Positions 8,876 to 37,680 are shown, counted from the stretch's first letter. The stretch is DNA of 64,000 bases from Dehalococcoidia bacterium (GCA_965263185.1 OZ253588.1:1863369-1927368), one strand, 5' to 3'. Notes: generated by a model not told the origin, from the letters alone. Made by a program: numbers and translations.

Positions 8876-8897
8876 AATAGGCGGCACTAGAGCCTGA

Positions 8898-8967
8898 TTA
8901 AAAGTCCAGAACGAACCGCAGTGTGAAAGTTCTTGATTTCGTCCAGTTAGGTGGGCCTATTTTGACG
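8898..8967 (-). other. attP-like dyad encoding a recombinase-type C-terminal tail (VLPTVKIGPPNWTKSRTFTLRFVLDF*)
   Basis: CGTCAAAATAGG-CCCA-CCTAACTGGACG is an imperfect inverted repeat; related copies at 13773-13830, 15175-15231, 35075-35144, 37629-37680. Confidence 0.6.
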
Positions 8968-9131
8968 GTAGGCAGAACCATCTTTGAGATGTGGCTGGGC
9001 CTGGGAGGCTCACCAGGGTTTGCTACTACACAACTATGGCAGGATGGCATGGGCGGCGACAAATGTCGCCCGTGCCTATGCCGCTGCAACCAGCCTGAGT
9101 CAGGGATTTACCTCGAAAGCGGTCCGTGTCT

Positions 9132-9785
9132 CTAGTCTCCCAGCAGCCCGTTACGCACGCACCACAGAACCAGCCCCTGCATCGTCCCGACCCCCAACTT
9201 TTGCTGGATGCCGTAGATGGCGTTCCGAGCGGTCACCGGCTTAATCCCCCTCGCCTCCGCGATCCTAGTGTAGGACATACCCTGGGCGAAGGAGACGAGT
9301 ATCTCCCGCTCCCTCGGAGTCAGCCCGACGGCGGCATCTTCCGTCTTCCCGCCGCGGCGTATCGCCTCGAACGCCCTTCTCACAATTTCAGTTGGCAAAT
9401 GAAAATCGCCCAGGACCACGTTTCGGAGGGCTGACAGCAGTTGCTCCCTGTTAGTCTCCTTCTGGAGGAATCCGGTGGCGCCGGCGGCCACGGCCTCCAC
9501 GACGGCGTCCTCCTCCGTAGAGGCCGTTAGCATGAGCACGCGGGTCTCGGGCGCGGACTCCATGATCTCCCTACACGCCTCCACGCCATCCTTCTTCGGC
9601 ATCATCACGTCCATCACCACTACGTCCGGCGACACGTCGGCCGCAACCCTGACCGCCTCCTCGCCATCCGCCGCCTGTCCCACCACCTCGAACTCGCCGG
9701 ACTGGTCCAGGAGCTGCTGCAGTCCGACTCTCACGATTGAATGGTCGTCGACGATCATCACTCTTATGCGCTCGCCTGCTGACAT
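9132..9785 (-). CDS. NarL/LuxR-family response regulator
   Basis: REC domain (IVDDH, VVVMDVMMP) plus LuxR HTH (LTPREREIL). Confidence 0.92.
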   Translation of the reverse strand: MSAGERIRVMIVDDHSIVRVGLQQLLDQSGEFEVVGQAADGEEAVRVAADVSPDVVVMDVMMPKKDGVEACREIMESAPETRVLMLTASTEEDAVVEAVAAGATGFLQKETNREQLLSALRNVVLGDFHLPTEIVRRAFEAIRRGGKTEDAAVGLTPREREILVSFAQGMSYTRIAEARGIKPVTARNAIYGIQQKLGVGTMQGLVLWCVRNGLLGD

Positions 9786-9801
9786 TCCAGACCTCCTCTC
9801 T

Positions 9802-11052
9802 CTATCGTTCCCGCGGTACCACGCAGGTCACGGTTGCGCCGCCCATGGCGCCTCGCTGGTCCACCACGAGGCGCCCGCCCAGCCGTTCGGCGGCCCTGCT
9901 CATGTTCGCGAAGCCGTTACCGCGCTCCGCGTAGTCATCGGGAAGTCCGACGCCGTCGTCCGACACCGACAGGCGACTATCCTCCTCGGCAAACTCCAAG
10001 TCGATGGCAACATTGCTCGCTTCCGCATGGCGGTATGCGTTGGTGAGCGCGTTGTGCGCTATCGAGAATAACAGGCTCCTGGCCTCGACCGATAGCAACG
10101 GCTCGGCGCCGGTGTGAGTCATCTCGACTGGCACCGAGGTCACGTTCGTAAAGCTGGTTGCGTGCGATCTCAGAGCCCAGCTCAGATCCCTACCTTCGTA
10201 GATGCCGCCCACATTTATAGGGTGTCTCAGTTCCCATATGATGGACCGGGACAGCCGGGACGTCGCCTCAAGCGTGGCGGTCAGTTCCGGGTTCGCGTCT
10301 CCGGCATGCGCTTTTGCTGTGTCGATGCCCAACCCTATCATGTAAGCGGACTGGGCAGCGGTATCGTGAATGGCGTGGGACAGCTCGATCCGCTCACGCT
10401 GAAGCGCCTGCTCGCGCTCCACAGCCTGCCTCCACCTGATCCGCTCGAACCTGGTTGCCAGGTTGACCGCCGCAACGACCGCATACATGACGGCTATCCT
10501 GGCCAGCAACGCCTTCTCGTCCCCTGCCTCGATGTCTATTCCATCCCCCACGGTCAGGCTGATTGCCACATAGACGAGGGACACTATAGTCACCCACATT
10601 ATGTTGAGCCTGAAGGAAGTGAACAGCACCGCCAACCCGGCCAGCGCGGGATAGTAGAACAGGTGGTGGAAGGAGTGGCTGAAGCCATCGCTTAACGCCG
10701 CCGCTGCCGAAACAAGGAACACGTCCAACGCGTAGAGAGCCACAGGCCAGCGCCATGTGATCGGCCTGTTGGACAGGAGACGGTAGTGAATGTACCCATT
10801 GAACCCGATCAACACGAGGAGGAGCAGCGGAAATGGGGCATACCTGGCAACCCCGAAATAGAGATAGGGGCGATACACCAGTTCAAATAGCAATACGGCG
10901 ATTACAAACCAGTGCCCTCTGACGGACATGGTTGCCACGTACTTTAGGCCGTCCGGGTCTATCTGGTTGAGCGTCCAGCCGTTCACCCGGAAGGCGTCGG
11001 TTGTCTTCGTGACTAGCTGCAGGACCCTGCTGTAGTGGGACCCGTGAGGCAT
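9802..11052 (-). CDS. Membrane sensor histidine kinase (HisKA_3 type)
   Basis: TM N-terminus, ERIELSHAIHDTAAQ H-box, AHNALTNAYRHA, SVSDDGVG; co-directional with the regulator. Confidence 0.9.
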   Translation of the reverse strand: MPHGSHYSRVLQLVTKTTDAFRVNGWTLNQIDPDGLKYVATMSVRGHWFVIAVLLFELVYRPYLYFGVARYAPFPLLLLVLIGFNGYIHYRLLSNRPITWRWPVALYALDVFLVSAAAALSDGFSHSFHHLFYYPALAGLAVLFTSFRLNIMWVTIVSLVYVAISLTVGDGIDIEAGDEKALLARIAVMYAVVAAVNLATRFERIRWRQAVEREQALQRERIELSHAIHDTAAQSAYMIGLGIDTAKAHAGDANPELTATLEATSRLSRSIIWELRHPINVGGIYEGRDLSWALRSHATSFTNVTSVPVEMTHTGAEPLLSVEARSLLFSIAHNALTNAYRHAEASNVAIDLEFAEEDSRLSVSDDGVGLPDDYAERGNGFANMSRAAERLGGRLVVDQRGAMGGATVTCVVPRER

Positions 11053-11359
11053 CTCGTATCCCTGTTCTAGAATCTATGAGGTGGATAGCTGCGGGCGGGA
11101 GTTCCAAGCACATCCTTCATCAATCTAAACAGTTGGTGCTATGCCCGCAAGTAGCACATGCCCTCGCCAACAGAGCGATAGTACCTCCAAATGACTCTGA
11201 AGCTGTAAATGGTCGGACATTTTCGCTGGCCAGTTAAGGAGGACAGAATCGTTGAACATCAACACCACTCAAAGCAGGGGCATTTGCACATATATCGGAC
11301 AGGGCAACTGCCCCTAATAAATAGGGCATTTGGTAATTGTTTGCGGCAAGGAAATCAGG

Positions 11360-11480
11360 GATCATGTGTCGGTTGCGCTGCTCGCGGTGATCGGAGCGGT
11401 CTGGGCCCTGCCCCAAAGGCAATGGCCGCGCCGGACCGGCCCTCGGGCCTGACAGCAGAATACAGCCACGAAGACAGTTT
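11360..11480 (+). pseudogene. Frameshifted start of a secreted FN3-like protein
   Basis: VALLAVIGAVWALPQ resembles the 14168 signal peptide (ALLAVIGALLVLPQ), then AMAAPDRPSGLTA after a frameshift. Confidence 0.45.
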
Positions 11481-11576
11481 GGAGCAGCTTCAGGAAGCTA
11501 ACCTGACTCCTTTCTTCTCTTCGGTGGATTTGGGATAAGGGAAGAACTAATTTACAAGCACGGAGGGCGAGGCACA

Positions 11577-13019
11577 ATGCGATCACGGCGCCAGTTTGAC
11601 ACGGGAGTTGATACGGGAAGAAAAGACACCGCTTTGATGAGAGCCGAACCGAGGTGGCCGGGACGTTTGCGTCTTCGACTCCTGGCGGCCGTGCTCATCG
11701 CCGCTTTCGCCGCGCTCACGATCTACGCGTATACGGCGAACGTGTCGGTCGTGTCGGCGGCGAGTCCCTGTCCCGCGGTCAACGACTGGTGCACGACGAT
11801 GACGGTGGCAGACGCCGAGGGTGACGGAATATTAAACGGGTATGAATTTGACAAGTTCGGCTCGATCGTCGACGACACGATCCAACCCGGCGGCGCAAAC
11901 ATCAACGTCTGGACCGTGCACACCTTTGCGCACCCGCTCCCGCAACTGCCCGATTACATTTTCTTCGGCTCTAACCCGAGGGTGCCGCGCGGCACGCAGG
12001 TCACCATTGAAGGGCACACGTTCATAGCGGACGCGGAGTCGCATGACGGCGAGGAGGGCGATACGGGCGATAAATGGGAATTTCCCTCTGGCGAGTTGCC
12101 CGCCAGCCTGGTCTGGTCGGCAGGCCAGGAGGTCACGGTAAGCGTGAAGCTTGCCTCCCCGTGCGACAACCTGGACAACCTGGTCAACGCCATCGTCGTC
12201 AAGAACCTGACCGGTGAGATCACCCAAGCGGGAGACACCAACCTCCACAAGATCAGGCTCGACCCCTACAAGAGCTACCTCATCGAGGCCATCGGAGTGG
12301 ACGGCAGCGACATGCTCGGCGTCGAGGAACACCCCAACCTCACCCTGGAGGACCCTGAAATCCCCGCCATCTGGAACGCCAGAGGCAGATCCGAGTTGAT
12401 TACCTACGGTTCCAAGAGTGACGGCAACGCCATCAGGCGCATCTTGCGAACCGACCACCGCACCTACAAGATCGAGGTTTCCTCAGGCAACAACGGCACC
12501 GGCACCTACCAGCTCAAGGTCCGGGTCAACAACATCTGCCGGATCAACGACGACGGCGACGCACAGTACCAGTGGGCCGGCGGCCCGGAGGGCTACCCCC
12601 AGGGCTCCGACCTGCCCGCTGGAATCGGAGGACGTCAGGTCCTGCTGACCGGCACCGACTGGGGGAACAACAACGTGACCCGGCCGGAAATTCACCACGT
12701 CCTGGGAGACAACTGGGACTCCAACCCCGACGAGGACTGGATCGGCGTTGACCTGGAGCAGGGTGAGGAATACACCGTCAGGCTTCGGACCAAGACCAGC
12801 CTGCCGGAGAGGCTGCAAGCCACCCAACTCAAGATCCTGGGCATCAAAGACGCCGACGGGAACGCCATCAGCGGCACCGCCAGCGCGGGAGACGCCGGAA
12901 AGAAGGTCTTCGTCACCAACTGGGAGGCGCCCAGCACCGGCCGTCACTACATCGCCGTGGGGACGGAGGGCACCGACCGGACCGGGATCTACTGGATAAG
13001 CATCACCAGGAAGAACTAG
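11577..13019 (+). CDS. Secreted protein with PPC-like (pre-peptidase C-terminal) domains
   Basis: Signal peptide (possible start 11637); DEDWIGVDLEQGEEYTVRL, TGRHYIAVG..TGIYWISI, YKIEVSSGNNGTGTYQLKV. Confidence 0.72.
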   Translation: MRSRRQFDTGVDTGRKDTALMRAEPRWPGRLRLRLLAAVLIAAFAALTIYAYTANVSVVSAASPCPAVNDWCTTMTVADAEGDGILNGYEFDKFGSIVDDTIQPGGANINVWTVHTFAHPLPQLPDYIFFGSNPRVPRGTQVTIEGHTFIADAESHDGEEGDTGDKWEFPSGELPASLVWSAGQEVTVSVKLASPCDNLDNLVNAIVVKNLTGEITQAGDTNLHKIRLDPYKSYLIEAIGVDGSDMLGVEEHPNLTLEDPEIPAIWNARGRSELITYGSKSDGNAIRRILRTDHRTYKIEVSSGNNGTGTYQLKVRVNNICRINDDGDAQYQWAGGPEGYPQGSDLPAGIGGRQVLLTGTDWGNNNVTRPEIHHVLGDNWDSNPDEDWIGVDLEQGEEYTVRLRTKTSLPERLQATQLKILGIKDADGNAISGTASAGDAGKKVFVTNWEAPSTGRHYIAVGTEGTDRTGIYWISITRKN

Positions 13020-13164
13020 GATTGACGACAACCCGCGACAGCAGCGTCTCCGCCACCTTGGACACGACATCGGCAGTCGCCGTTATGACGGCCCTCATCA
13101 GGGGCATGTCGTCCTCAACTCCAGGGAAGAATCGCGGGACACGCGGACGTATCTCATCTTCGAG

Positions 13165-13437
13165 GTGACCCTGAACCGGGAAGCGAACAAGGAAGTGCGC
13201 GTGGACTACGTCACCGTGGACGGTCCTGCGGTGGCGGGCCGGGACTACGAGCCGAAGTCAGGGACGCTGGTGTTTGGCAGGCGCGATCTTACGAAGACGA
13301 TATGGGTGTCGGTAGAGTTCGACGCGGCGTACGAGGACACCGAGACTATGACGCTGCGGCTGTCGAACCCACGTGGCGGGCAGATCGAGGACGGCACGGC
13401 GACCGGCTCCATTTACGATTACTCGACTAGCAGATAG
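13165..13437 (+). pseudogene. Detached Calx-beta domain
   Basis: FEVTLNRE..EVRVDYVTVDGPAVAGRDYEPKSGTLVFG..DAAYEDTETMTLRLSNP; no signal peptide and out of frame with the upstream gene. Confidence 0.78.
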
Positions 13438-14167
13438 GGATCGCGTACTTGCTGCTGCCGTGCAGCTAAAAGGCAAAAAGGGCAGCATCATGGGTGTGCG
13501 GGAGGGATCGTCGCCCGGCCCGCAACGGAATCTCCCGGTGCATGGGAGTCCTGATGCGTCCTACGGGAGGCCCGGTGCGTCATGCCGAAACAGCGCACAT
13601 ACTACTGACCTTACCCCCTAAAACAGTGGCATTGTCAATGAGAGTGCTCTGAGTAATGTTCTTCCCCCTTCTACTCAACGCAATCCCCCTGCCTGATGGG
13701 GAAAGGCCAGCATCTAATTGTTCTCCCAAACAAACCTCAGCCTGAAGGTTCTTGTTTTGGAATCTGTTTCGGTTACACCGCCAAAGCGAAGGCAATGGTG
13801 AAGGTTCTTGATTTTGTCCAGTTATGTGGGGCTAGAATGTACTGTAATGCGAACGTTGCGGTGGGAGATTTCAATGCAGTGAGCGGGTTGAGCGACCCAC
13901 ATAAGCCTCCACCGGGCTTAAACCTGCCGGGCTGGAGGATCGGCATCCCAAGACCGCGCTGGGCCGTGGCGTGCGTGTAGAAGAAGCGTTCATATTCCAT
14001 TCAGTAGGGCAGATGACTATCTCGTGGCAGAGCCAATGCCCCCTTGGATTGGGCCATTTGGCACTTGCCGTGGGCAAGGACATTTTGGAATCATGTGGTT
14101 ATTCAAGACGAGGGGCGGTCAACCGGAAAGACACCCTGAGCGGTTGATTGACCTATAGGAGTGAACC

Positions 14168-14701
14168 ATGAGAAACATGATTCTGTCGCGCGCCGCCATC
14201 TGGACTGCCGCTGCCCTGCTGGCGGTCATCGGAGCCCTCCTGGTCCTACCTCAGAGCGCGGAAGCCGGGCGCGGGCCGAGCTTAAAGATCAAGTCGGTTC
14301 AAATGAACATCACTCCCACAGCCGACGCCACCTTGGATAATAAGAAGGTGGACATATCCTTCAAGTGGCGTGCGTCGAGAAACGCAACCGGTTACCAGAT
14401 CGATAGACGTGAGCGCATCGGCGACCTGTCGGGGTCTATTAGTTTTGAATCCGAATGGACGGGGTGGAAAGCCAACAGGCAGGAATCAGATACTGCAAGA
14501 AGCACGACCATCAACTATCCTTACAGTTTCGACCAAGTGGGCAAGATGGTGGAATGGAGAGTTCGCGTGAAGGACGCAAACGGCAACTGGAGCCGCTGGT
14601 ACAACATCGGCGTCAGCTGGGGTATCAAGTCGAAGCACTCCACCCACTACGTGATTAAACGGGAATGGTTCTACCCGGAAGATTATCCGGTACTGAACTA
14701 G
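14168..14701 (+). CDS. Secreted beta-rich (FN3-like) protein
   Basis: Signal peptide ending AEA; ISFKWRASRNATGYQIDRR, VEWRVRVKDANGNWSRW; RBS AGGAG. Confidence 0.75.
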   Translation: MRNMILSRAAIWTAAALLAVIGALLVLPQSAEAGRGPSLKIKSVQMNITPTADATLDNKKVDISFKWRASRNATGYQIDRRERIGDLSGSISFESEWTGWKANRQESDTARSTTINYPYSFDQVGKMVEWRVRVKDANGNWSRWYNIGVSWGIKSKHSTHYVIKREWFYPEDYPVLN

Positions 14702-14979
14702 TGTGGTGTATCCGTAGTTCGCTGCATTATTCGGGGGCTTTCTGAATGGACAGAGAACCGGAGTCTTGCACGAACCAGAGTAACGGATCAGCGTCGATCA
14801 CCCCTGTATTTGCCAATGAACTACGGATACACCACACTAGTGTGGTGTATCCGTAGTTCGCCGCATCATTCGGAGGCTTTCCGAAAGGACAGGGAACTGG
14901 ATTCTTGCTCGAACCAGAGTAACCTATCAGCGTCGATTGCCCCTTTATTTACCAATGAACTACGGATACAGGACACTAG
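14698..14979. mobile_element. Tandem dimer of a 135-bp MITE (possibly IS630-like) sharing CTAG sites
   Basis: CTAG at 14698, 14837 and 14976; TIR TGTGGTGTATCCGTAGTTC / GAACTACGGATACACCACA; 139-bp period. Confidence 0.85.
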
Positions 14980-15110
14980 GGCCAAGTGATTGGCGTCAGA
15001 AAAGGCCTGCACACATGGACACGCCGTCGGGCTGAAACACAAAAAGGGCCGCATACATGGTCAGCCTAGGGGAGGACACCGAACCGCGTATCGTAGTGTA
15101 CCGAGTAGGG

Positions 15111-15270
15111 TGTTGGCAACCAGCGAAAATAGGACGCGATAGGGGGCAGGTCAACGGGGACGGATCAGTTCTGACTACAAGTCCAGAACGAACCTCAGCC
15201 TGAAGGTTCTTGATTTTGTCCAGTTAGGTGGAGTTGACCCCACCTCAAACCCCTCGGGTTTCTCTATCCC
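15111..15270 (-). mobile_element. IS3-B shell: right end, recombinase tail and leader
   Basis: IRR TGTTGGCAACCAGC at 15111; tail PPNWTKSRTFRLRFVLDL* at 15175-15231; leader 15232-15270 cut by IS3-A. Confidence 0.65.
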
Positions 15271-18449: not shown

Positions 18450-18489
18450 GAGACCCGCCACTCTCATGAAGACCTCGAAGTGGTCCAGA

Positions 18490-18900: not shown

Positions 18901-18929
18901 GTTCTACTAGCCACTGATACTAAATTCGA

Positions 18930-19012: not shown

Positions 19013-19057
19013 GACCCCGTTTTCCCACAGAGCCGTACGCCGAGGCGCAAGCAGCCA

Positions 19058-21847: not shown

Positions 21848-21849
21848 TT

Positions 21850-22707
21850 CTAAACTCCAAGCTTGAGATTGACCGCTCCCAGGTAACCGCTCATAACGAA
21901 ATTACTCCAAAGCAGCTTTTCGTTCAACTGGTTGATTATCGCCCACAAGAACTCCAGTTCTCGTTCTGGGCTATGAATCCAGATCTCGCTAGGTGACACG
22001 GGAAAGCCTTGTTCGATGGCTCTCTCGACTGGGCTCTCGAACGGAAGGGAGTCAACTGCTACAAACCCTTGCCCTAGAACGAATACGCCATCGACAAACA
22101 GATGGTTAAAGAACCCGCGCTCTCCCGGATTGGTGCTCCTGAGGTCGTCTAGCCCAAAGCTATCCTCTTTCGAGACATCCATCATCCAATTGAGGACCGT
22201 TGCAATCTTTGCAGGACCTTCGTAGGCAAAGATGAATGAATAGGGACGTGGATTCTTGACCATGCCTGTAGGATTGAAGCTCTGAGGATCGAATCGCGCC
22301 AAGCTCTTGATACGCTTGGCCACTGCGGCAGCGTCTCTGACGTCCTCCTTAGTCAAACGTGATTTGATCTCTATCGTTGATGAGACGGTTTCGATGAAGA
22401 AAAGGTCGATGCCAGCCGCCAAAGGAAGTTTCGGGTATCGCTTGTTGTGTATCACTACGTCGATTTGATTCCTAATCTCCCCTTCCTTAGTTTCTCCGTC
22501 GAAGATTTCCCCGGTGCTGACTCCCCACAGGTCCGAGATATTCTGCGCCAAGAACTCCCGAATGAACGCTTCCCGGATTAGCCCTCTGTTCAGGCCATGG
22601 TGGAACGATCTTGCTGCATTGCCTTCTGCTTCAAGTCGCCTTCTGATGCGGTCGAAATGCGACCGGAACAGTGTCATTGATGCCGTTTCCCCGGGTTGAG
22701 TTGTCAC
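21850..22707 (-). CDS. DUF6602-like protein, predicted PD-(D/E)xK nuclease fold
   Basis: RGLIREAFIREFL..STGEIFD..QIDVVIHN..P...IETVSSTIEIKSRL. Confidence 0.7.
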   Translation of the reverse strand: MTTQPGETASMTLFRSHFDRIRRRLEAEGNAARSFHHGLNRGLIREAFIREFLAQNISDLWGVSTGEIFDGETKEGEIRNQIDVVIHNKRYPKLPLAAGIDLFFIETVSSTIEIKSRLTKEDVRDAAAVAKRIKSLARFDPQSFNPTGMVKNPRPYSFIFAYEGPAKIATVLNWMMDVSKEDSFGLDDLRSTNPGERGFFNHLFVDGVFVLGQGFVAVDSLPFESPVERAIEQGFPVSPSEIWIHSPERELEFLWAIINQLNEKLLWSNFVMSGYLGAVNLKLGV

Positions 22708-22790
22708 TTGGTCACAGCCTCCAACGTCGCGTCACAAAGCATGCCTTCCTCGCTTATCTGAGAAAGGTGGGTGCGCTGACTTTGGCTAAG

Positions 22791-24493: not shown

Positions 24494-24528
24494 CTAAGGA
24501 CAAGAATCGGTTTGCCTCCACACGTCCT

Positions 24529-24885
24529 TTAGGAGCTTGGCGGATGTGATATCCTGATTCTCCCGCCGCGTATAGTTACTACCGCACGTTCTTCCATTGC
24601 CTGGCGATGCCGTTCGATTACTTCAGCGACCAGCGCTATGCGTTGCTCGGCTGGCACGTCCGGCAACCGGACCAGTCCAGCGTGTGAGATATCGTGCAGG
24701 TAGATCAACTCACCAAAGTCGGTATCTATCGTAATCAGGACACGGTCCGTCGATTCCGCCAGCTCCAACAAAGTCTTGTCGCCAGGGTCAGGGCCCAAGG
24801 TCCTAGCCTCGATCACATCATGTCCGTCATTGCGGAGCCACTCCGCCAATCGGCGTCCCGCGCAACGATCTACAAGAAACCTCAT
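24529..24885 (-). CDS. DUF5615 PIN-like toxin
   Basis: MRFLVDRC..DKTLLELAE..RVLITIDTDFGEL; ATGA overlap with the upstream antitoxin. Confidence 0.85.
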   Translation of the reverse strand: MRFLVDRCAGRRLAEWLRNDGHDVIEARTLGPDPGDKTLLELAESTDRVLITIDTDFGELIYLHDISHAGLVRLPDVPAEQRIALVAEVIERHRQAMEERAVVTIRGGRIRISHPPSS

Positions 24886-25133
24886 GCTTCAGAAACCGAG
24901 ACCGGAGCAAGCGTGTCCCCTGCTATGACTGTGTGGGCATAGGCTATGCAGGCGCGGATGTCTTCAGGTTCCAATTCAGGGTAATCATCCAACACCTCCT
25001 GCTGGGTAACTCCCTGGCTCAGGAGGCTCAGAATGAGTTCTACGGATATCCGCATATCACGGATGATCGGCTTCCCGCCAAATACGTCGGGGCGGGCCGT
25101 GATGCGCTCTAGGAGTTTCCCGTTACCTGACAT
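24882..25133 (-). CDS. DUF433 antitoxin
   Basis: RITARPDVFGGKPIIRDMRISVELIL..YPELEPEDIRACIAYA. Confidence 0.9.
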   Translation of the reverse strand: MSGNGKLLERITARPDVFGGKPIIRDMRISVELILSLLSQGVTQQEVLDDYPELEPEDIRACIAYAHTVIAGDTLAPVSVSEA

Positions 25134-25176
25134 GTCTTCCCTCCTGGACGAGAGTATTTGCCTTCATTGAGCCTTC

Positions 25177-28100: not shown

Positions 28101-28185
28101 TCGACTTCTCCCGCGCTGCGTGCCGCGACACTTCCGCGATGGGAAAATCAACTTCGGCCAGGCGCTTGCATTCTTTGGGGATCAT
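25177..28185 (-). CDS. DUF1156 adenine-specific DNA methyltransferase
   Basis: TLHLWWARRPL (DUF1156), motif I DPFAGGGSIP, motif IV FTDPPYYD. Confidence 0.92.
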   Translation of the reverse strand: MIPKECKRLAEVDFPIAEVSRHAAREKSIRHGHPSTLHLWWARRPLASSRAVLMALLLPDPCDANCPPSFKTDARRALLGMKTRPSGWNEQVKTDEGLRRALLKFIADFANWDNAAKAEYVETGRALVRAAHPEETPLVVDPFAGGGSIPLEALRLGCETFASDLNPVACLILKVMLEDIPRHGPRLAEELRKVGQEIKAKAEKELADLYPKDPDGATPIAYLWARTVRCESPNCGAEIPLMRSMWLCRKPNRKWALRTEVKRPNDQPPYIDLEIFEPESDREVAAGTVSRARATCACCGAVLPPERVRSQLSVLRGGADTVFDQQGNRTGGARMTAVVTLKPGEQGRHYRLPTNADYAAVRRAQERVAEMLDEWERGGRQGLCPVPDEPLNPIRPSPNARGLSAVTRYGMASFGDLFTARQKAALVKFVGTMANPSVGVIQELTALLLGKMADGNNSLARWESTAENPVNVFARQALPIVWDFCESTPKSNARGVFLSSVGGVCEVVEFSRSAILGQLQLADATNHPLPDQAAGVWFTDPPYYDAIPYADLSDFFLVWLNRTLPRHPLLRDPFDTTNTLSPKTQECVWNQSHEYEGRPKDAAFFEDTIAKVFAEGRRVLSEDGIGSVVFAHKTTEGWEALLAGMVKGGWTVTGSWPIATESASRINARDTASLATSVHLICRPRPEDAPVGDWPDVLRKLPERVADWMQRLQGEGIRGADLVFACVGPALEIYSRYSRVETAEGREINLPEYLERVWEVVGREALEQVLGTAEAQARNGAAGALEEDSRLTALFLWTMQSTSEGASSDNGVEPDDEENDEAEEDETPRKQASGFSLPFDVARRFAQPLGIHLDDWESRIIRTEKGVVRLLPITERGKQLFGESGVAAAADEMDATSNASLQLSLFPEEPPAVRGRARRRGRPGTVTADGIEPTLSATTLDRVHAAMLLQASGRSQALRNLLRAEQERSPDFLRLANALTALYPRGSEEKRLLDAMLLAVPR

Positions 28186-28202
28186 TTGAAGCTTAGCCTA
28201 CC

Positions 28203-29657
28203 TCAAAACACTTCGGTGCTAGACGGTGGAGCATTGGTTCTTGAACGTGTCAATTCACGACTATTGCTAGTGTACTCCACACCGCGTATGTCCAATACTA
28301 CAATACTATCTAAGTCCAAACGCAGAGCAGGTTCATCGTAGGACATCGGGTCGTCATCATCTCCCAAACCATCCTCACTCCATTCAGGCACTTGCTCGAT
28401 CATAGGCAACTTTGAAGGCGGGGTGGTCCTGACGTACTCCAGTATAGATATTCCGTCGTCGTCATCTGTGTCCTCCCTGACAGGAGGTACATTTATCCTA
28501 AAGTTAACTATATGGGATTGATCGCGCGGTTCCACTCTACAAGCGTGGTTGAATAACACCACGTTGCGGCCGTCCCCACCTGTCTGTGATGAAGTGTAGA
28601 TCATACCGTCAAGGCGCGGCTCCACTTTGTTCGCTAGATATTCCGCTACGACCTGAGTGGTGAGGTATTCTACGGCCTCGTCCTGTGGCATCACAGGTTG
28701 GCTCAACTCGCTTACCAAGTCTCTTAGGAATTCCGCACGCGCTTTGCGTACGCCGTATTCGGGGTCAAAGTAGCTTCCTCCTACGTAAACCTCCTTCAGC
28801 GTGAGCAAGTCAAGCAGGCGCATAGGTCGCAACATCTCGAACTTGGCCAAAACGACGTAGCTACCCACCGGAGGACGGATCTCCGAGATGCAGGTGGATT
28901 TGTCCATAGCTCCGTAAAATACGGGAATGCCTTGGGCGTTCATCCTCCCACTCCTAGTCAGTCTTGATGGCGGTGGGCCAATTTGACTGGCAGGCGAAAT
29001 CAGCATTGCCTTGAGTTCAAGAGTAGACAGGGCCTGGCGCGCTCGCCAAATGAACCTGTTTTCGTCCTCTGGGCCAATTTCAAGGACTACTGGCCGACTG
29101 GGATATGCCCTGAGGGAGTTCAAGTCACCAAATATATCGTGCAGCATCCGTTCGGTGCTTCTGCTGAAGAACCTTGTCCGAGAACGGATTTCGGTACGAA
29201 ATGCATTCCAGGTCTCAGGGAACTTCCAGTCGTCGGTACTGGACTCCTCGTAGAACGCATCAGAGTCATATGGATTCTCTTCTCCCTCTCTCATAGCCTC
29301 ATATTGATAGCGGCCAAAGAGTAATGCACACACGTCGCCTGCTACCTGTTCGGTAAGGCCTGCAATGTCGGCAATAACACCCTCCACAGGCTGGCCTTCT
29401 CTATACCACTCCACTAGACGCTCACGCATTAACGCGTAATCCAAGGCGTCCGGCTCACTTGGAGTGAGTTCGAAATGTTCTTCCAGAACTGCATGGGTAA
29501 GATTGGCTAATTCCTCTAGCGTCAGCACCCCGCGCGTCTTACCACAGTAATTGCATTTGTCCGAAGTCCCTTCCTTTTTCACCTCGTCGGCCAGGAACTG
29601 GTCACCAATGCAGGTATGGCATATATGCTTAGCCTCACTGTCATGTATAGCGGTCAT
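28203..29657 (-). CDS. RES-domain protein with Cys-containing N-terminal domain
   Basis: CHTC..CNYC N-terminus; RARQ, SGRMNAQGIPVFYGA..ISEIRP, YTSSQ (R-E-S residues). Confidence 0.82.
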   Translation of the reverse strand: MTAIHDSEAKHICHTCIGDQFLADEVKKEGTSDKCNYCGKTRGVLTLEELANLTHAVLEEHFELTPSEPDALDYALMRERLVEWYREGQPVEGVIADIAGLTEQVAGDVCALLFGRYQYEAMREGEENPYDSDAFYEESSTDDWKFPETWNAFRTEIRSRTRFFSRSTERMLHDIFGDLNSLRAYPSRPVVLEIGPEDENRFIWRARQALSTLELKAMLISPASQIGPPPSRLTRSGRMNAQGIPVFYGAMDKSTCISEIRPPVGSYVVLAKFEMLRPMRLLDLLTLKEVYVGGSYFDPEYGVRKARAEFLRDLVSELSQPVMPQDEAVEYLTTQVVAEYLANKVEPRLDGMIYTSSQTGGDGRNVVLFNHACRVEPRDQSHIVNFRINVPPVREDTDDDDGISILEYVRTTPPSKLPMIEQVPEWSEDGLGDDDDPMSYDEPALRLDLDSIVVLDIRGVEYTSNSRELTRSRTNAPPSSTEVF

Positions 29658-32600
29658 TCTTTGGATCCCTTGTATCGTGCCCGCTCTTCCGCAATTCTCA
29701 TGGGCTTAGTCATGGCATCCACTTCCAGCCAGTAGTGCTGCACCTTGCTGACCTCATGCCAGGGGAAGCGGGCCGGATCCTCGATTGGCTCCTGTAGCTG
29801 CGGGTCGGCAGCGCAGTTGGTGACAACGTAGAGCCAGTAGCAGTCGCGGCGGTCCTCAGCCACGCGCCGCTCGTTGGGCGACAGCAGGATGGTGCCGGAC
29901 TCGGCGGCGAGGCCCTTCACCTCTATCAGGCGCAACTGACCCGACTCTACGTCGAGGCTGGTGACGTCGTAGCCCAGGTTCTTCTCGTGAACGTCGTACA
30001 CCTGGCGGCCCTGGGCGGTCTCGTACTCCATCACCACCCGCATGGCGGTCATCTCGGTCTCGGCGTTCGGACGCAGGCGCTTTATTTCGGGAGTCTCGCG
30101 CTCCGGATGGGGCATGACCAGGACGCTGGCCAGTCGTTCGACACCCTGAAGTGTGAGCGCTCTCTGCTGGGTGAGTTCACGCCGCCGCCGCTCCCGGCGC
30201 GCCATAGCCTCGTCGTGACGGGCTTCGGCCTGGGCCAAGCGGCCCTCTGCGCCTGTGACCTGCTTCTCCATCTCCTCAGAGGCGCGGCCTATTTCCTGGT
30301 CGAAGCGATTCAGCACCTCCTCGAGCGACATTTCGACATGATCGGCGATTCGGTCCACCTCTGCCACCCGCTCGGCGCGCACATCTTCGATGAAGGGAGT
30401 GAGCGCGTGCTCGTTCAGCCAATCGGTAGCCTCCACAAGCGAGGCCACGGTGGGAAGGCCCTCCGGAACGGCAGCCGGAGTCAGGTTGCCGAGTATCTCC
30501 GGTTCCCGGAGGCATGGCGCACTGCCGTCCGCTAGTTCCACGGTGAAGAGCCGCTCGTGGATCACATGCCCTAGGCCATCGACGACCCGCGCCCGGTAGA
30601 AATCGAGACGCGCTGGGGTCTCGTGGTCAAGAGAGTACAAACAAGCGCCGGCAGCAAAAGCGTCCCTGCTGGTTTCGACGCAGTGACGACGGAGAGCCTC
30701 GAAGAGTGGATGTCCGGGCGTGACCCATTCCAGGTTGTGCTCCTCCGCTGTGTCCCGATCCGTGGATAGGCGTGGATAGCGGGACACCAACTCGGTAAGA
30801 CTCCAGTCGGGATCGCGCTCATACTTCTTCAAGGCAGTCGGCGTCCGGCCCGGCTCGAAGGTGTGGGGCAAGTGGCGCACCGGGTTGAGGGTGAGGGATG
30901 CCTGCTCAGCGCTCTCCGATAGAAAGCGGGCTATGGATTCCGGCACCACCCGGCGCTCCTGGGCGCGGGCGCGGCGTTCGACCAGCATTTCCAGGTTGAG
31001 CTTTTTGGCGGCCAGACCTTCCAGCGCCGTCTGACAGATTTCACGGAAACGGCCCTCGTCAACATCCCTCAGCAGACGGTCTTCCAGGTCGGCGTCGCCC
31101 AGCTTGCCAGAGTAGTAGTCACGAAATACGCGGTCCACTTGGGCAGCAGGCAAGACCTCGCCAACCACGTTGAACACGCCGTCATCGTCGAGGGCGTCCC
31201 TGATTTCCTGAAGCTTGGTCAGGAGGCGTTGGAGCACGTGCCCTTCGATAGTGTTGGCAGCGACGAAGTTGAAGATGAGGCAGTCGAAGCGCTGGCCATA
31301 GCGGTGGATGCGCCCCATGCGCTGCTCCAGTCGGTTCGGGTTCCAGGGGATATCGTAGTTAAAGAGAATGTGGCAGCACTGGAGGTTGATTCCCTCTCCT
31401 GCCGCTTCGGTCGCCACCAAGACCTGGATGTTCCCGTCGCGGAACTGCTGTTCAGTGTAGAGACGGGAGCCCACCTCATCCCTTGAACCGGACCTCATGC
31501 CGCCGTGGATAGAGCCTACCCGGAAGCCCCAGGCCTTCAGCCTCTCCACGAGATAGTCCAGGGTATCCCTGAACTCAGTGAATATCAGCAGCCGTTGGTC
31601 CGGGTCTTCGAAGAACCCTTGCTCTTGCATGATGTCCTTGAGTCTGCTGAGCTTAGCCTCCTCACCCGATGCCTCGACAGTGGTTGCTTGGGCCGCAAGC
31701 TCCTTGAGCTCGGCGATCTCCTTGCGGACTTCGTCGGAGTTCCCTGCAAGCGTGACCGCCTCCAGCATCCGCTCCAGACGTTCGCGCTCGGTGTCCTCAA
31801 GCTCTTCCAGGTCCTCCCAGTCGGGAAGGCTCGGCGGCGCAGTCCGCGCCAAGTCTTGGGCCTGCTTTAGTCCCTCTTCCAGGCGATTGGCCCGGTTCTC
31901 AAGCGAGCGGCGCATCGCATGGGCGCTGGAGGCTAACCGTCGCTGGTACAAGGACATGAGGAAGCCGACGGCGCGAGCCCTGGGGTCGTCGCCCTGGGCC
32001 GCAGCGCGGGTGCTCTGCCGTTTCACGAACCGAGTAACCGCTTGGTACAACTCGAACTCGGCGTCGTCCATGGTGAAGCTGACCGTGTGTGTGATTCGCT
32101 TTGTGAACACGGGCTTGGCGGCCCAAGCGCCGTCTGGCTGGCGCTCAGGGAAGTAGACCATCGCCTCTTTCGTGCGGCGAAGGTAAAAGGGCGCTCGCCG
32201 CCGCTCCATTGCCTCCCTAATGGACTTTACGTCGGCATAGGCGTCTCGATCCAGCAGTTGTAGGAACAGCGTGAAGTTATGAGGGTCGCCCTTGTGAGGT
32301 GTAGCGGTGAGCAGCAGCATGTTGTCAGCGCTGTCCCGGAGCAGCTCACCCAGCCTGTAACGCTGGCTCTTGTGCGTCTCGTCCCGCGCCGACATGCGAT
32401 GGGCCTCGTCGACAATCACCAGGTCCCAACGCACCTGCCGTAGACCGGGAAGAATATCTTCGCGCTTGGCGAGGTCGAGGGACGTGATGGTCTGCTTCTG
32501 GTCGAGCCACTGGTTGACGCCGAACTGGTCTCGGATGTCGCCGCCCTTCAGGACGAAGAACCGCTCGTCGAACTTTTCTCTTAGCTCCCGCTGCCACTGG

Positions 32601-33091
32601 AAGGTCAGGTTCGCCGGGCACACAACAAGGACTCGCTCGGCCAGCCCCCGCAACTTGAGCTCGCGGATAAGCAGACCGGCCATGATGGTCTTACCGGCCC
32701 CAGCGTCATCTGCCAGCAGGAACCGTACGCTGGGGAGCTTAAGGAGATAGTCGTAGACGGCCTCAAGCTGGTGGGGTAGGGGATCCACCCGCGAGATGGA
32801 CAACCCGAAGTAGGGGTCGAACTCGTGGGCGATGCCGAGGGAATACGCCTGGAGGCCAAGGCGCAGGAGCCGTCCGTCGCTATTGTATGAAAGGGTGGGG
32901 TCGGCGATAACGAGGCTCGCGATGTCGGCTGAGGTCAGCGTAACACGCCGGAATCGCTCGGTGCGCTGCCCGACAAGGCCCGCCTCCACGGAACCCGGAC
33001 CGTTCGTGCGTACAGTCTCCACCCGCATCGGCTCGCTGAACAGCGGCCCAGTTAGCACCTGCCCTTCACAGATCGCGGTATCGATGGTCAA
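29654..33091 (-). CDS. SNF2-family helicase with C-terminal DUF3883-like nuclease domain
   Basis: LADDAGAGKT, VDEAH, TATPH, TEAAGEGINLQ, EQRMGRIHRYGQ; GYDVTS..IEVKG tail; TTG start with GGAGG RBS. Confidence 0.92.
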   Translation of the reverse strand: MTIDTAICEGQVLTGPLFSEPMRVETVRTNGPGSVEAGLVGQRTERFRRVTLTSADIASLVIADPTLSYNSDGRLLRLGLQAYSLGIAHEFDPYFGLSISRVDPLPHQLEAVYDYLLKLPSVRFLLADDAGAGKTIMAGLLIRELKLRGLAERVLVVCPANLTFQWQRELREKFDERFFVLKGGDIRDQFGVNQWLDQKQTITSLDLAKREDILPGLRQVRWDLVIVDEAHRMSARDETHKSQRYRLGELLRDSADNMLLLTATPHKGDPHNFTLFLQLLDRDAYADVKSIREAMERRRAPFYLRRTKEAMVYFPERQPDGAWAAKPVFTKRITHTVSFTMDDAEFELYQAVTRFVKRQSTRAAAQGDDPRARAVGFLMSLYQRRLASSAHAMRRSLENRANRLEEGLKQAQDLARTAPPSLPDWEDLEELEDTERERLERMLEAVTLAGNSDEVRKEIAELKELAAQATTVEASGEEAKLSRLKDIMQEQGFFEDPDQRLLIFTEFRDTLDYLVERLKAWGFRVGSIHGGMRSGSRDEVGSRLYTEQQFRDGNIQVLVATEAAGEGINLQCCHILFNYDIPWNPNRLEQRMGRIHRYGQRFDCLIFNFVAANTIEGHVLQRLLTKLQEIRDALDDDGVFNVVGEVLPAAQVDRVFRDYYSGKLGDADLEDRLLRDVDEGRFREICQTALEGLAAKKLNLEMLVERRARAQERRVVPESIARFLSESAEQASLTLNPVRHLPHTFEPGRTPTALKKYERDPDWSLTELVSRYPRLSTDRDTAEEHNLEWVTPGHPLFEALRRHCVETSRDAFAAGACLYSLDHETPARLDFYRARVVDGLGHVIHERLFTVELADGSAPCLREPEILGNLTPAAVPEGLPTVASLVEATDWLNEHALTPFIEDVRAERVAEVDRIADHVEMSLEEVLNRFDQEIGRASEEMEKQVTGAEGRLAQAEARHDEAMARRERRRRELTQQRALTLQGVERLASVLVMPHPERETPEIKRLRPNAETEMTAMRVVMEYETAQGRQVYDVHEKNLGYDVTSLDVESGQLRLIEVKGLAAESGTILLSPNERRVAEDRRDCYWLYVVTNCAADPQLQEPIEDPARFPWHEVSKVQHYWLEVDAMTKPMRIAEERARYKGSKE

Positions 33092-33094
33092 CCG

Positions 33095-33725: not shown

Positions 33726-33790
33726 CGGCACAACTCCCCTTGAATGTCAGAATTGTAGCATCTACACTAACACTTATCAACGACGCCAAA

Positions 33791-34260
33791 TGTAGGTTGT
33801 CATCGATAATGGGACAACTCCGCCACCAGTTGCTTGAGTTCTACGTTCTCTCGCCTCAGCCCCTGAACCTCCTGCTGCGTGGCGTCCCGCACCATGTCGC
33901 GGGTCAACCTCTCCCTCCCAGCCTCCATGAACTCCTTCGTCCACGCATAGTAGGAGTGGGGCTTGATCCCCTCACGCCGGCACAGGTCACTCACTGTGAC
34001 CTCCCGGTGGAATCCCTCCAACACGATGCGGATCTTCTCCTCCGACGTGTACTTGCGCCGACTGGCAGCCTTCATCGTCCGCACGAAGGACCTGGTCTCC
34101 TCTGTCCGCTCCTCTGCGTGCACCGCCTTGGCTGTCTCTGTCTGGGACATTGTTGCTCCTCTCTATGAAGTACTCTACCTCATCCAGGGAGCTCACCCAA
34201 CCTCAACTCTCTCGGGTTTTTCTGCCCGTTCCAGTGTCCCATTGTCGCTGACAACCTACA
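33791..34260 (-). mobile_element. 470-bp IS3-B derivative bounded by two left-type IRs, containing truncated orfA (33800-34150)
   Basis: TGTAGGTTGTCATCGATAATGGGACA at 33791 and its inverse ending at 34260. Confidence 0.82.
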
Positions 34261-34831: not shown

Positions 34832-34850
34832 ACAGCTATGGCGCCACAAG

Positions 34851-34930
34851 TGTAGGCCGTCAGCGATAGTGGGACACTCCTCGACCCGACAGATCAGGGG
34901 TTGTCTTGAGGTGTGGCGAGCTTCCTGAGG
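34851..34930 (+). mobile_element. Orphan degenerate IS3-B left end
   Basis: TGTAGGCCGTCAGCGATAGTGGGACAC..TTGAGGTGTGGCGAGCTTCC. Confidence 0.65.
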
Positions 34931-35074
34931 GCCCTGTCGTAGGGATTTCTCTGTTGGATCGGCCAAGCCTGAACCTCTTTGCATCTCGGTGTTGGCTCAG
35001 GTGGGTTCTTGCTGTAACCTGGGCACTCCTAATTGCTACAATGGCATTGCAAGCTCGAATGTGGTTCTGTCTAC

Positions 35075-35144
35075 CGTCAAAATAGGCCCACCCAACTGGA
35101 CGAAATCAAGAACCTTCGTGTTGCGGTTCAAGTTGGCACTATAG
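35075..35144 (+). other. attP-like dyad with recombinase-type tail (VLSTVKIGPPNWTKSRTFVLRFKLAL*)
   Basis: Homologous to 8898-8967, with the same inverted symmetry around CC at 35088-35089. Confidence 0.6.
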
Positions 35145-35320
35145 GGTCCGCTCGTTCACCACATATCACGGTACTGCCCGGCTATGTGATTTTGGACCAG
35201 ACCGCAAATACATTTGCCGAGAGTTCGTTTCTCGCGGGCCTCCGGGTCTGCTACCTTGATGTCCTCGGCGACTGCGGTCCAGCCCGTGGTTGACGGTGAC
35301 AGTTCGAGCTGTGCCCCTTC

Positions 35321-36010
35321 CTATTCCAGCTCCAACCCAAGGTGTTCCCGAAAGGCCCTGGCGCCTTCCGGCGTTACCTGCACCAAACGCGGGCCGGAGC
35401 CGGGCCGCAGCCATTCCATTGCCAAGTAGTGCTGTGTGAGCACTGCTCCGAGAGCGCCGCCTAGGTGATCCCGCTTATCCGTCCAGTCTAGGCAGCGCCG
35501 AGCGAAAATCCTTCGCTGGCGCCTTACCGCCTCCAAGTCGATGCCCAGCCTGAAGCAGAATACATGCCCCTCTTCGGAGAGCAGAAACCCCTTCTCGTGG
35601 GGAGTCAAGTAGCCATGGGAGACCATTACGCGAGCCAGCGACGACCCAAGGCGCCCCGCCAGATGGTCGTAGCAGGTTCTGGCGAGCTCTATTTCCGTAA
35701 GGGAGCGCGTGGGCGGCTTATTTTGGCTCGGGAGCAACTCGTACATGATTTCCAGCACGTCCGAGATTTGCGGCTCGGAAATCCGGTAGAACCGGTGCCG
35801 CCCGCTCCGCTCGAAACTCACGAGACCCGCTTCCACCAGTCTGCCGAGGTGCGTGCTGGCTGTGTTGAATGCCACGCGGGAGATGATTCCCAGTTCCGTG
35901 GCCGAGCGAGGCTGGCCGTCCAGCAACACCTCCAGCATCCGTCTTCTGGGTGGAGAGGCCAGAAGAGTGGCTAGTCCCTCGATTGACTCGATTGATCTAG
36001 CTGCATCCAT
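35321..36010 (-). CDS. ArsR/SmtB-family transcriptional regulator with C-terminal extension
   Basis: LASPPRRRMLEVLLDG..STHLGRLVEAGLV..GRHRFYR; ARTCYDHLAGRLG. Confidence 0.88.
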   Translation of the reverse strand: MDAARSIESIEGLATLLASPPRRRMLEVLLDGQPRSATELGIISRVAFNTASTHLGRLVEAGLVSFERSGRHRFYRISEPQISDVLEIMYELLPSQNKPPTRSLTEIELARTCYDHLAGRLGSSLARVMVSHGYLTPHEKGFLLSEEGHVFCFRLGIDLEAVRRQRRIFARRCLDWTDKRDHLGGALGAVLTQHYLAMEWLRPGSGPRLVQVTPEGARAFREHLGLELE

Positions 36011-36085
36011 ATTTCGATGTTACTGGAAGCATTGAATACTGTAAACCCCTACAATCGCCTCACCCTTGTATAGAGAGGTGGAAAC

Positions 36086-37333
36086 ATGCAAGATACCCCG
36101 AACGCCCCGCGCCGTCCTATACTCATCATTTTTGCGAACGTGTCCTATCGGTGGTTGTTTTCCGCCGGCGTTGTGGTGAACGTCGGTGTATGGGCGTGGC
36201 TCCTCTCTAGCAACTTCATCATATACGAGATAACCCAGTCGCCTTTCCTGGCGCAGCTCAACGGTGTCGCCTTTGCCGTGCCGAACCTGCTCATTGGCAT
36301 CCTCAGTGGCGTACTTGCCGACAGCTTCGACCGACGCAGGCTGCTTCAGGTGTCCTACCTCCTAAACGGCGCCGTCGCCCTGTTCTTCGCCTGGATGGTC
36401 CTGAAGTTCCACGTCGAGGCATGGCAGGTGATGGGAGCCACACTGATCATAGGCTCTGTGAACACCCTGGATTGGGCTTCCCGGTGGACTCTGGCTTCGA
36501 ACGTAGTTGAGAGGCGGGTTCTCCCGTATACGATGGCCTTGGAAGCGTCTTCGCTGATGGGTGGGCAGTTCGCGGGGCCATGGTTGGGAGGGGCTCTTGT
36601 GGGCATTGCACCCCTAGGGCAGGTTGGAGTCGCTGTCCCTCTTGCGGTTATTGGAGCCCTGTTCCTGGCGGGGACTCTTTTGATGCTGAGGGTCACGCCC
36701 CTGGTTCCGCAGGAATTCAAAGCATTCGAGGTACGGACGGTATGGGCCAGAACCGTTGAGGGACTTCGCGTGGTTGCGGGAAATCGCGTGGTTATAGGAA
36801 CACTTGGCATAGCCTTCTTGGTCAACGCATTTTTCTATTCCCATACGTCATTGATTCCAGCCTTCGCCAAGGACGTCTTGCGAGTGGGCCCGGCGCCCAT
36901 GGGCCTTCTGGGAGGAGCGCAGGGGATGGGAGCACTGGTGGGGGCCACGTACATCGCCCTGCAGAGCGACATCCGCCGGAACTCAACCTATTTCATCGTG
37001 GGTTCCCTAATGACGTTGATCGGCCTGCTGGCGTTCTCCATCTCACGGTTTTTTCCCATCGCACTGGGGAGCCTGTTTTTTGCCGGCCTTGGCCTTGGGG
37101 GGTTCTCCTCGATGCTCACAACGCTGACGCTCACCTCCGTCAGCGATGAGATGCGCGGCCGCGCCAGCGGCATGGTAAACCTCGCGATTGGCGGATGGCC
37201 CCTGGGTTTGCTGGTAGTAGGAGTATTGGCAGAGCTGAGGGGGCCGAGCTTAGCCCTGATCTGCACCTCCGCGACAGGCCTGGCAGTAACGGCTCTATGG
37301 TCGTATCGATGCAAGGAGATGCGTAAAGTGTAA
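36086..37333 (+). CDS. MFS transporter
   Basis: About 12 TM segments; GVLADSFDRRRLL motif A; divergent from the ArsR gene. Confidence 0.9.
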   Translation: MQDTPNAPRRPILIIFANVSYRWLFSAGVVVNVGVWAWLLSSNFIIYEITQSPFLAQLNGVAFAVPNLLIGILSGVLADSFDRRRLLQVSYLLNGAVALFFAWMVLKFHVEAWQVMGATLIIGSVNTLDWASRWTLASNVVERRVLPYTMALEASSLMGGQFAGPWLGGALVGIAPLGQVGVAVPLAVIGALFLAGTLLMLRVTPLVPQEFKAFEVRTVWARTVEGLRVVAGNRVVIGTLGIAFLVNAFFYSHTSLIPAFAKDVLRVGPAPMGLLGGAQGMGALVGATYIALQSDIRRNSTYFIVGSLMTLIGLLAFSISRFFPIALGSLFFAGLGLGGFSSMLTTLTLTSVSDEMRGRASGMVNLAIGGWPLGLLVVGVLAELRGPSLALICTSATGLAVTALWSYRCKEMRKV

Positions 37334-37628
37334 TGGGCGGCTCGTGTGGTTCGAGCTCAAGGCCTACAATCTGAGAAAGGCTGCCAAATTGTCCATATAG
37401 CCCGACCCTCAGGATAGCCCAGCGAGATCACTCGGCTTGACAACGAAGGTGATGACCGAGATTACCTTACCCAAAATGCCCACAAGCTCATTTCTATCCC
37501 CGAGACCTCCCTCCGAAGAACTCGCCAAAGCTATCAAAGATCTCCTTACACAGGCAGAACGACGATCAAGAAAAGCGATTCTCGTACACGCTGCTAGGGC
37601 TAACCGCTCTGTCCGGGGACGCTGAGCT

Positions 37629-37680
37629 CCACCCAACTGGACGAAATCAAGAACCTTCGTCCTCAGATTCTATCTGGCAA
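37629..37680 (+). other. Hybrid att-like half site with recombinase-type tail
   Basis: TGAGCT-CC-ACCCAACTGGACGAAATCAAGAACCTTC. Confidence 0.55.

Follow-up and report, generated by a model that had tools for sequence, protein, structure and literature searches.

The closest described counterpart of the repeat family reported here appears to be the ssrA genomic islands of Dehalococcoides, in which a serine integrase of ~540 amino acids (aa), DsiB, is encoded by a gene that abuts the transfer-messenger RNA (tmRNA) gene (McMurdie et al. 2011, PMC3146451). These islands use the tmRNA gene as their single target, insert in its T loop with a 20-bp direct repeat, and form tandem arrays split by short repeats in which many units are without an integration module and presumably moved in cis or in trans (PMC3146451). 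Our repeats lie between positions 8,898 and 37,680 of a 64,000-nucleotide stretch of a Dehalococcoidia genome (GCA_965263185.1 OZ253588.1:1863369-1927368; the window, from whose first letter positions without a contig name are counted), and we regard them with good confidence as the attachment-site arms of a family of large serine recombinases (LSRs), widespread in Dehalococcoidia, that recombines at a fixed CC in tRNA 3' ends and in sequences resembling them.

Set beside the published description of DsiB rather than its sequence, the present family would be a variant that differs in its targets, break point, shared bases and tail. Both systems belong to the same bacterial class and have an LSR of ~540 aa, a gene end that abuts a tRNA-like 3' end, and units without a recombinase. 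Unlike the ssrA islands, the present family uses several tRNA genes and look-alikes; the break falls in the acceptor stem at positions 71-72 instead of the T loop, only CCACC is common with the targets instead of a 20-bp repeat, and the recombinase's own tail is encoded across the crossover. The tmRNA gene of the source genome (C1:2235856-2236211), considered as a target and rejected, has no site of our census near it. A small DsiA-like partner of ~200 aa was not seen among the five Resolvase-domain matches of the source genome.

The repeat and the recombinase genes that end in it

The preliminary description of this locus, made from the sequence alone, had noted five recurrences of a motif that always encodes P(P/H)NWTKSRTFx(L/I)xFxL followed by a stop. 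Both points are borne out. The 20-mer AACTGGACRAAATCAAGAAC has five exact matches in the window, against 0.02 expected from shuffles:

8929-8948, minus strand: exact match to AACTGGACRAAATCAAGAAC
13804-13823, minus strand: exact match
15206-15225, minus strand: exact match
35094-35113, plus strand: exact match
37635-37654, plus strand: exact match

Alignment of the five copies gives a common block of ~55-60 nt that starts with CCACC. The peptide is read in one frame in all five, with the stop as codon 17 in four and after 22 codons in the copy at 37635. The neighbours of the motif in the window are unrelated genes and IS3 transposase fragments. The 2.5-Mb source genome holds about 27 copies (25-30), and 15 of 40 relatives, from several families of the order, hold 1-17 each; a reversed-pattern control in the same scan gave no matches. 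All-against-all comparison revealed that the copies are modular, with a core that spans about -6 to +25, counted from AACTGG. About half of the copies have a sharp left boundary; in the other half a second conserved module, GGTTCTGCCTACCGTCAAAATAGG, stands at the left, and this module is also found without the motif, similarity there stopping just past GGCCCACC.

Several other identities were considered and set aside. The motif has no Rfam match in the window at gathering thresholds, which disfavours a structured RNA (group II intron end, omega RNA, tRNA-like or tmRNA); the one Rfam hit in the window is a tRNA-Ala at another place, and only noise came from permissive searches of 4550-4900 and 34840-35180. 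ARAGORN finds no tRNA at the short arm described below. Copies never form inverted pairs at the distances of an insertion sequence (IS), as its terminal inverted repeats would. The C-terminus of a local gene was likewise rejected, since at most 59 in-frame codons precede any copy in the source genome, until intact genes in relatives revived the idea.

Among 20 fetched relative loci, one (L030 1411-3048) has the motif as the last 19 codons of an intact 546-aa protein whose only Pfam matches are Resolvase, Recombinase and Zn_ribbon_recom, domains that together identify it as an LSR. LSR proteins bearing the tail end in GSPPNWTKSRTFxLxFxLxh and a stop, and in at least 24 species intact LSR genes have the motif as their in-frame end. 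When one genome of each species was scanned, 328 relatives of this LSR came up, all in Dehalococcoidia/Chloroflexota assemblies and many of them 90-98% identical across different species. Whether full-length homologues of the tail are recombinases had been named beforehand as a test of the preliminary description, and they are. A search of the last 70 residues against 1.84 billion representative proteins gave 302 matches, mostly fragments of 57-260 aa; these would fit many 3' remnants in metagenomes, and do not bear on full-length proteins. A look-up by sequence for previously recorded findings came back empty.

The physical link between recombinase and site also locates the break. The 120 nt before CCACC have a mean pairwise DNA identity of 0.88-1.00 among 25 LSR loci of different species; beyond CCACC, identity is 0.78-0.80 in the 24-nt core of the right (P') arm, ~0.5 in the next 27 nt and 0.26, the random value, after the stop. 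This drop means that a near-invariant LSR gene has been joined at one point to many versions of the motif. Antisense tRNA-like arms also occur as right partners at this point, as does a second, convergent LSR gene in reverse complement. The left module GGTTCTGCCTACCGTCAAAATAGG is the coding end of LSR genes, and the resident LSRs of the source genome end in the same module or in variants of it. That genome has five serine recombinase genes, none of them in the window, as the preliminary description had held; four have full-length open frames (538-588 aa), and the open frame of the remaining one, a large gene that is disrupted, measures 251 aa. Three resident LSRs end in related arms:

C1:207022-208626: resident LSR
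C1:762974-764737: resident LSR
C1:2181428-2183044: resident LSR

The resident LSR at C1:206935-208626 is of the partner, or third, type in another arrangement, observed at loci L102-L123 (~20 genomes). There, LSRs of a second class, 66-69% identical and with the opposite core polarity TGGG, regularly have a third LSR type as their tail-to-tail neighbour; both genes run through the core, so that each gene end is the outer arm of the other.

A further resident LSR, of 539 aa (C1:2149848-2151464, minus strand), ends in GAWTRTQNGWRCC followed by LLGMSNLKRAKGLL in another frame, a stretch that corresponds to the 3' end of an IS5-like transposase gene; the LSR seems to have lost its natural end to this stretch at the P'-like sequence CTTGGACAAGAACACAGAAC. 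Its last 14 residues recur at nine other places in the genome (294846, 518829 and 928734 among them), all of which are IS5-like transposase 3' ends, and a second family of recombinase tails was therefore rejected.

Arms, tRNA ends and the IS3-B leader

The full site is ~52 bp, GGTTCTGCCTACCGTCAAAATAGGC-CC-ACCTAACTGGACGAAATCAAGAACC, and forms an imperfect dyad that spans the end of the recombinase gene. Its left (P) arm encodes SVLxTVxxGPP and its right (P') arm NWTKSRTF, then eight codons and a stop. The preliminary description had called two copies symmetric dyads; in the copies at 8929 and 35094 a dyad around CC is present, reaching a score attained by only 2-3 of 5000 shuffles, with imperfect symmetry in that the left arm agrees with the reverse complement of the right at 15 of 25 positions. 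Counted outward from CC, GGAC occupies 10-13 both in the long P and P' arms and in tRNA arms and a short arm, CCACCTAAGAGGACTCGAACC, but GAACC occupies 22-26 in the long arms and 16-20 in the tRNA arms and the short arm; the IS3 leader discussed below has CAACC or AAACC at position 17. The long arms thus resemble a tRNA T arm in which another 6 bp separate GGAC from GAACC.

This offset invites comparison with the attP/attB model for the phage large serine integrases (A118/LI, Bxb1, phiC31), in which the A118-type integrase of Listeria has an attB ~10 bp shorter than attP and a zinc-ribbon motif 5 bp nearer the centre (Rutherford et al. 2013, PMC3783163). The two arm geometries fit this model, with a presumptive assignment of protein domains to DNA motifs. 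Common to the canonical integrases and the present family are three domains, an imperfect-dyad attP of ~50 bp, a shorter attB, a central dinucleotide that sets polarity and a shifted distal motif; the present family differs in a shift of 6 bp rather than 5, in an attP that lies within the recombinase frame and in its tRNA-end targets. A recombinase-linked site, an imperfect inverted repeat, a shorter attB and fixed breakpoints, as expected of an LSR attachment site, were all found. A multi-targeting clade of LSRs has also been described, typically with DUF4368 and often with AT-rich targets and a TT core (Durrant et al. 2022, PMC10083194). Like that clade, the present family has one recombinase cluster (at least 90% identity) joined to many targets with a common motif; unlike it, no DUF4368 is found by Pfam, the target is the T arm and acceptor end of tRNA, and the core is CC.

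The tRNA junctions are direct. In three relatives P' adjoins the 3' ends of tRNA-Val, tRNA-Met and tRNA-Ala, with either GCCCACCA or CAGCTCCACCT running straight into AACTGG. In the source genome an intact LSR runs into an antisense tRNA-Ile, and tRNA-Ala(GGC) is followed by a decayed P'. In one genome (G003) an LSR fragment, oriented as expected, lies 9 kb downstream of a tRNA-Ala-P' junction. The central CC corresponds to tRNA positions 71-72, directly before A73-CCA, and because the P' arm re-supplies A73 and CC, the tRNA end is largely restored upon integration. These junctions point to tRNA 3' ends as the primary targets, and the sites of other cassettes probably serve as targets as well.

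A census of the source genome found 45 sites with the core CC-ACC, of the following types:

P - P': 14
Other - P': 13
P - other: 12
Short-arm sites: 6 (5 other-arm2, 1 P-arm2)

CC is central in 38 of the 45 listed sites, and the two junction types are similar in number (13 other-P', 12 P-other). The break is therefore fixed at CC and not scattered, both in these 45 sites and in the 25 LSR loci of other species, which was the second outcome on which the preliminary description had staked its reading. Taken together, we propose that strand exchange would occur at the central CC, that the natural targets would be several tRNA genes, at their T arm and acceptor 3' end, as well as tRNA-like sequences, the IS3 leader included, and that every recombination would join the LSR gene to a new P' arm and so replace its last 16 residues. 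Repeated integration and excision would have left the 45 sites of the source genome, which bound cassettes mostly without a recombinase.

The window contains two further cases of this break at IS3-B, a true IS3-family element with orfA and orfB. In five intact IS3-B copies the left inverted repeat (IRL) TGTAGGTTGTCAGCGACAATGGGACA is followed by a leader, GGTCAGCT-CC-CTGGATGAGG (TCAGCT-CC-CTGGATGAGG), and in two different copies this leader is replaced immediately past CC, by P' at 15231 and by the short arm at 4812:

15175-15231, minus strand: attL-type junction, P' core and tail PPNWTKSRTFRLRFVLDL with stop, joined at CC 15231-15230 to the IS3-B leader
15232-15270, minus strand: IS3-B leader remnant (GGGGTTTGAGGTGGGGTCAACT), B-type arm
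4792-4812, minus strand: short attB-type arm CCACCTAAGAGGACTCGAACC, with tRNA T-arm spacing read antisense (GAACC at 16)
4813-4883, minus strand: left end of a second, independent IS3-B copy (IRL 4858-4883 and leader), cut at the same CC as the 15231 copy
34148-34260, minus strand: unrecombined IS3-B left end (IRL, leader GGTGAGCT-CC-CTGGATGAGG and orfA start), the reference for an uncut pseudo-attB

The leader remnant at 15232-15270 has lost its own inverted repeat to a second IS3 element that starts at 15271. The short arm is joined at CC 4812-4811 to the other leader, giving a hybrid B-CC-B' site, and two B-type arms at 4812 would be the footprint to expect if excision had paired an attL with an attR that came from elsewhere. 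The preliminary description was correct that the leader stands as the left arm at 15231 and 4812 and is swapped exactly at CC; its placing of the motif as the right arm at 4812 was not, the arm there being the shorter, related CCACCTAAGAGGACTCGAACC. The leader has GGTTGGAG and TCAGCTCC where tRNA-Ala has GGTTCGAG and TCAGCTCC, a likeness to the tRNA-Ala 3' end by which the IS3 leader would serve as a pseudo-target. An LSR family with junctions at CC was thus rightly predicted, while the leader proposed as its attB is probably a secondary (pseudo) attB, tRNA 3' ends being the main target.

These breakpoints also bear on a simpler account, in which the repeats are decayed 3' ends of recombinase pseudogenes, spread by duplication and by homologous recombination over 24-50 nt with no exchange at CC. 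Stops do lie upstream of most P arms, which are short remnants; some homologous exchange could start from a core of 24 nt; and one pair of sites differs by a clean core indel of 22-24 nt. Yet the left breakpoints fall at CC even beside tRNA, the IS3 leader and unrelated DNA that share only CCACC, five common bases being insufficient for homologous recombination, and the account gives the two arm geometries, with their 6-bp offset, no role. We consider it improbable.

Cassettes in the window

Two cassettes in the window, E1 and E2, are bounded by sites of the LSR family:

8898-8979, minus strand: complete attP-type site, right end of E1 (P arm 8956-8979, CC 8954-8953, P' core, 16-codon tail and stop 8948-8898)
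8955-13827, minus strand: cassette E1, P' at one side and a P arm at the other, without a recombinase
9132-9785: E1 response regulator
9802-11052: E1 histidine kinase
11577-13019, plus strand: E1 open reading frame (ORF) of 480 aa with no Pfam match
13773-13854, minus strand: site at the left end of E1 (P' core and tail PHNWTKSRTFTIAFALAV with stop 13823-13773, CC 13829-13828)
35063-35144, plus strand: complete attP-type site (P arm 35063-35086, CC 35088-35089, P' core and tail PPNWTKSRTFVLRFKLAL with stop 35094-35144)
35090-37628, plus strand: cassette E2, without a recombinase, including a 62-aa ORF
35321-36010, minus strand: E2 ArsR-type regulator
36086-37333: E2 major facilitator superfamily (MFS) transporter
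37629-37703, plus strand: site at the right end of E2 (CC 37629-37630, P' core and 22-codon tail NWTKSRTFVLRFYLANNHHPPA with stop)

An LSR gene has left a remnant of its last ~17 codons (HISKMVLPTVKIG) as the P arm at 8956-8979, and the left arm at 13830-13854, a P arm that has diverged, is closest to that of the resident LSR beside tRNA-Ile. A second copy of E1 at C1:278829-288583 is 96-99% identical, is interrupted by insertions and has different sequence at both flanks. Another genus has a cassette (L028 2995-6354) with 93% identity to E2, which ends at the same cores, also has a P' site after it and differs in its left flank. The preliminary description had seen part of the IS3 leader as the left arm at 37629; only ~8 nt are alike, and this arm is in fact the right end of E2, conserved in the other genus. 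Neither cassette has a recombinase, so any movement of E1 and E2 depends on enzymes encoded elsewhere, and intact LSRs elsewhere in the genome presumably could move them in trans.

The P arm at 35063-35086 sits at the end of a ~235-nt repeat that begins at 34851 and has seven genome copies:

34851-35088, and C1:937638, 939270, 952121, 1381793, 1583988 and 1963899: ~235-nt repeat

The start of this repeat is an IS3-B-like inverted repeat and its end a P arm, and two copies differ by the clean presence or absence of 22-24 nt of P' core.

The minus-strand sites (4812-15231) and the plus-strand sites (35088-37703), with their cassette arrays, point apart and flank an IS3 cluster and a defence operon (19058-33091), an arrangement that may reflect inversion between sites. 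In another genome (G020 C1:106-129 kb, L026-L028), six P' sites lie in the same orientation 2-7 kb apart with no recombinase gene nearby, which is a cassette array comparable to that in the window.

A C-terminal tail across the proposed crossover

Since the last 16 LSR residues lie past the crossover point, each crossover swaps the recombinase's own C-terminus, and the codons beyond the break carry a record of selection. Of 82 distinct P' sites from the source genome and the fetched loci, 53 terminate precisely at codon 17. Over the first eight codons, NWTKSRTF, conservation extends to every codon position, which would be expected of a protein-binding DNA site. In the next eight the first and third positions vary, and T stands at the second position of four alternating codons in at least 94%, giving xLxFxLxh; this pattern is a coding signature, conserved at the protein level only. 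Selection therefore keeps the tail even at sites without an adjacent recombinase gene, and we take its product to be an amphipathic segment. In a P' subfamily the tail is cut after ~26 nt and is followed by a conserved module (CAATAGACACGGAAA, GGTACGCGTGGGCGGTCGATTTGG), which may represent the terminus of a different element with a fixed point of insertion in P':

G000 C1:959520, 1097639 and 1592449, and loci L026, L034, L039, L052, L062, L089 and L100: P' sites with cut tails

The coding signature is difficult to reconcile with the view of the motif as an intergenic repeat, of the repetitive extragenic palindromic (REP) or miniature inverted-repeat transposable element (MITE) kind, or as a small RNA gene targeted by mobile DNA, to which the recombinase link would be incidental. 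A multicopy, mostly intergenic motif with nucleotide conservation across an order and with IS3 ends adjoining several copies does recall such elements. It nevertheless matches no Rfam family and has no inverted partner, unlike a MITE; its downstream 27 nt vary in a codon-like manner to a stop at a fixed place, and it forms the in-frame end of intact LSR genes in the species noted above. We judge this view very improbable. Tyrosine integrases usually duplicate 15-60 nt of tRNA. That the sites are tRNA-type attachment remnants of such enzymes is the least probable reading of all, for although the genome has nine tyrosine integrases, several beside tRNA genes and one in the window at ~60.4-60.9 kb beside tRNA-Ala(CGC), the five sites have none of these within 20 kb, the duplicated stretch of tRNA measures only 5-7 nt here, and the gene with a site in its own reading frame is a serine recombinase. 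None of the three alternatives accounts well for breakpoints that are fixed, arms of two geometries and recombinase genes that end in frame in the motif. The tyrosine integrase in the window (60430-60912, minus strand) and its neighbouring tRNA-Ala(CGC) (61678-61753, minus strand) resemble an ordinary tRNA-targeting island and are unrelated to the serine-recombinase sites.

Several observations weigh against our own interpretation, the attachment sites of an LSR family. The class-A LSR with the exact tail is absent from the source genome, where the resident LSRs are 52-62% identical to it and end in the short arm or in an antisense tRNA, one being disrupted. The preliminary description had proposed a reciprocal junction of the IS3 leader, and this product, P-CC-CTGGATGAGG, is not present in the source genome; neither a matched attL/attR pair of one event nor an empty site was reconstructed. 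The right end of E2 is weakly P-like. Finally, many chromosomal sites are P-CC-P', that is, of attP type, and are not direct products of a rule that allows attP x attB only; the strict attP x attB selectivity of the canonical integrases does not predict their abundance. Composite elements with an internal attP, recombination or excision between neighbouring elements, and relaxed partner choice are candidates, at least one of which this abundance requires.

A precedent for attachment sites that alter a protein end is mycobacteriophage BPs, whose integrase is a tyrosine recombinase and whose attP lies within the repressor gene; integration removes from the repressor an ssrA-like degradation tag whose function has been demonstrated (Broussard et al. 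2013; PMC4557955). In both systems attP lies in an open reading frame, so that integrated and free forms give different C-termini; the BPs site is in a repressor gene and served by a tyrosine recombinase, whereas here attP is in the serine recombinase gene itself. The likeness of the LSR tail to the BPs tag is speculative. We also put forward a tentative model, which we hold to be rather unlikely as it stands, in which LSR and cassettes form an integron-like system: each cassette would start with a spare 'last exon' (the 24-nt core and eight codons), and the C-terminus would report the recombination state. Were this so, the recombinase would have its canonical tail when its gene continues into a P' arm, in a free circle or in an array, and a foreign one when its gene continues into a tRNA flank, and the switch could control LSR stability or directionality without a separate directionality factor.

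Serine integrases are prized for genome engineering, and to our knowledge almost all of those known target single protein-coding or intergenic sites. An LSR family that reads the T arm, acceptor stem and CCA end common to many tRNA genes would be unusual among them, and attP arms built as a tRNA arm with a 6-bp spacer would provide a natural illustration of the domain-spacing model for attP and attB. For the Dehalococcoidia, such sites would explain the passage of small cassettes of regulators and transporters between genera at 93% identity or more, by LSRs that may still be active. The last 16 residues, placed across the crossover and kept by selection in dozens of sites, suggest that the recombination state is coupled to the form of the recombinase protein.

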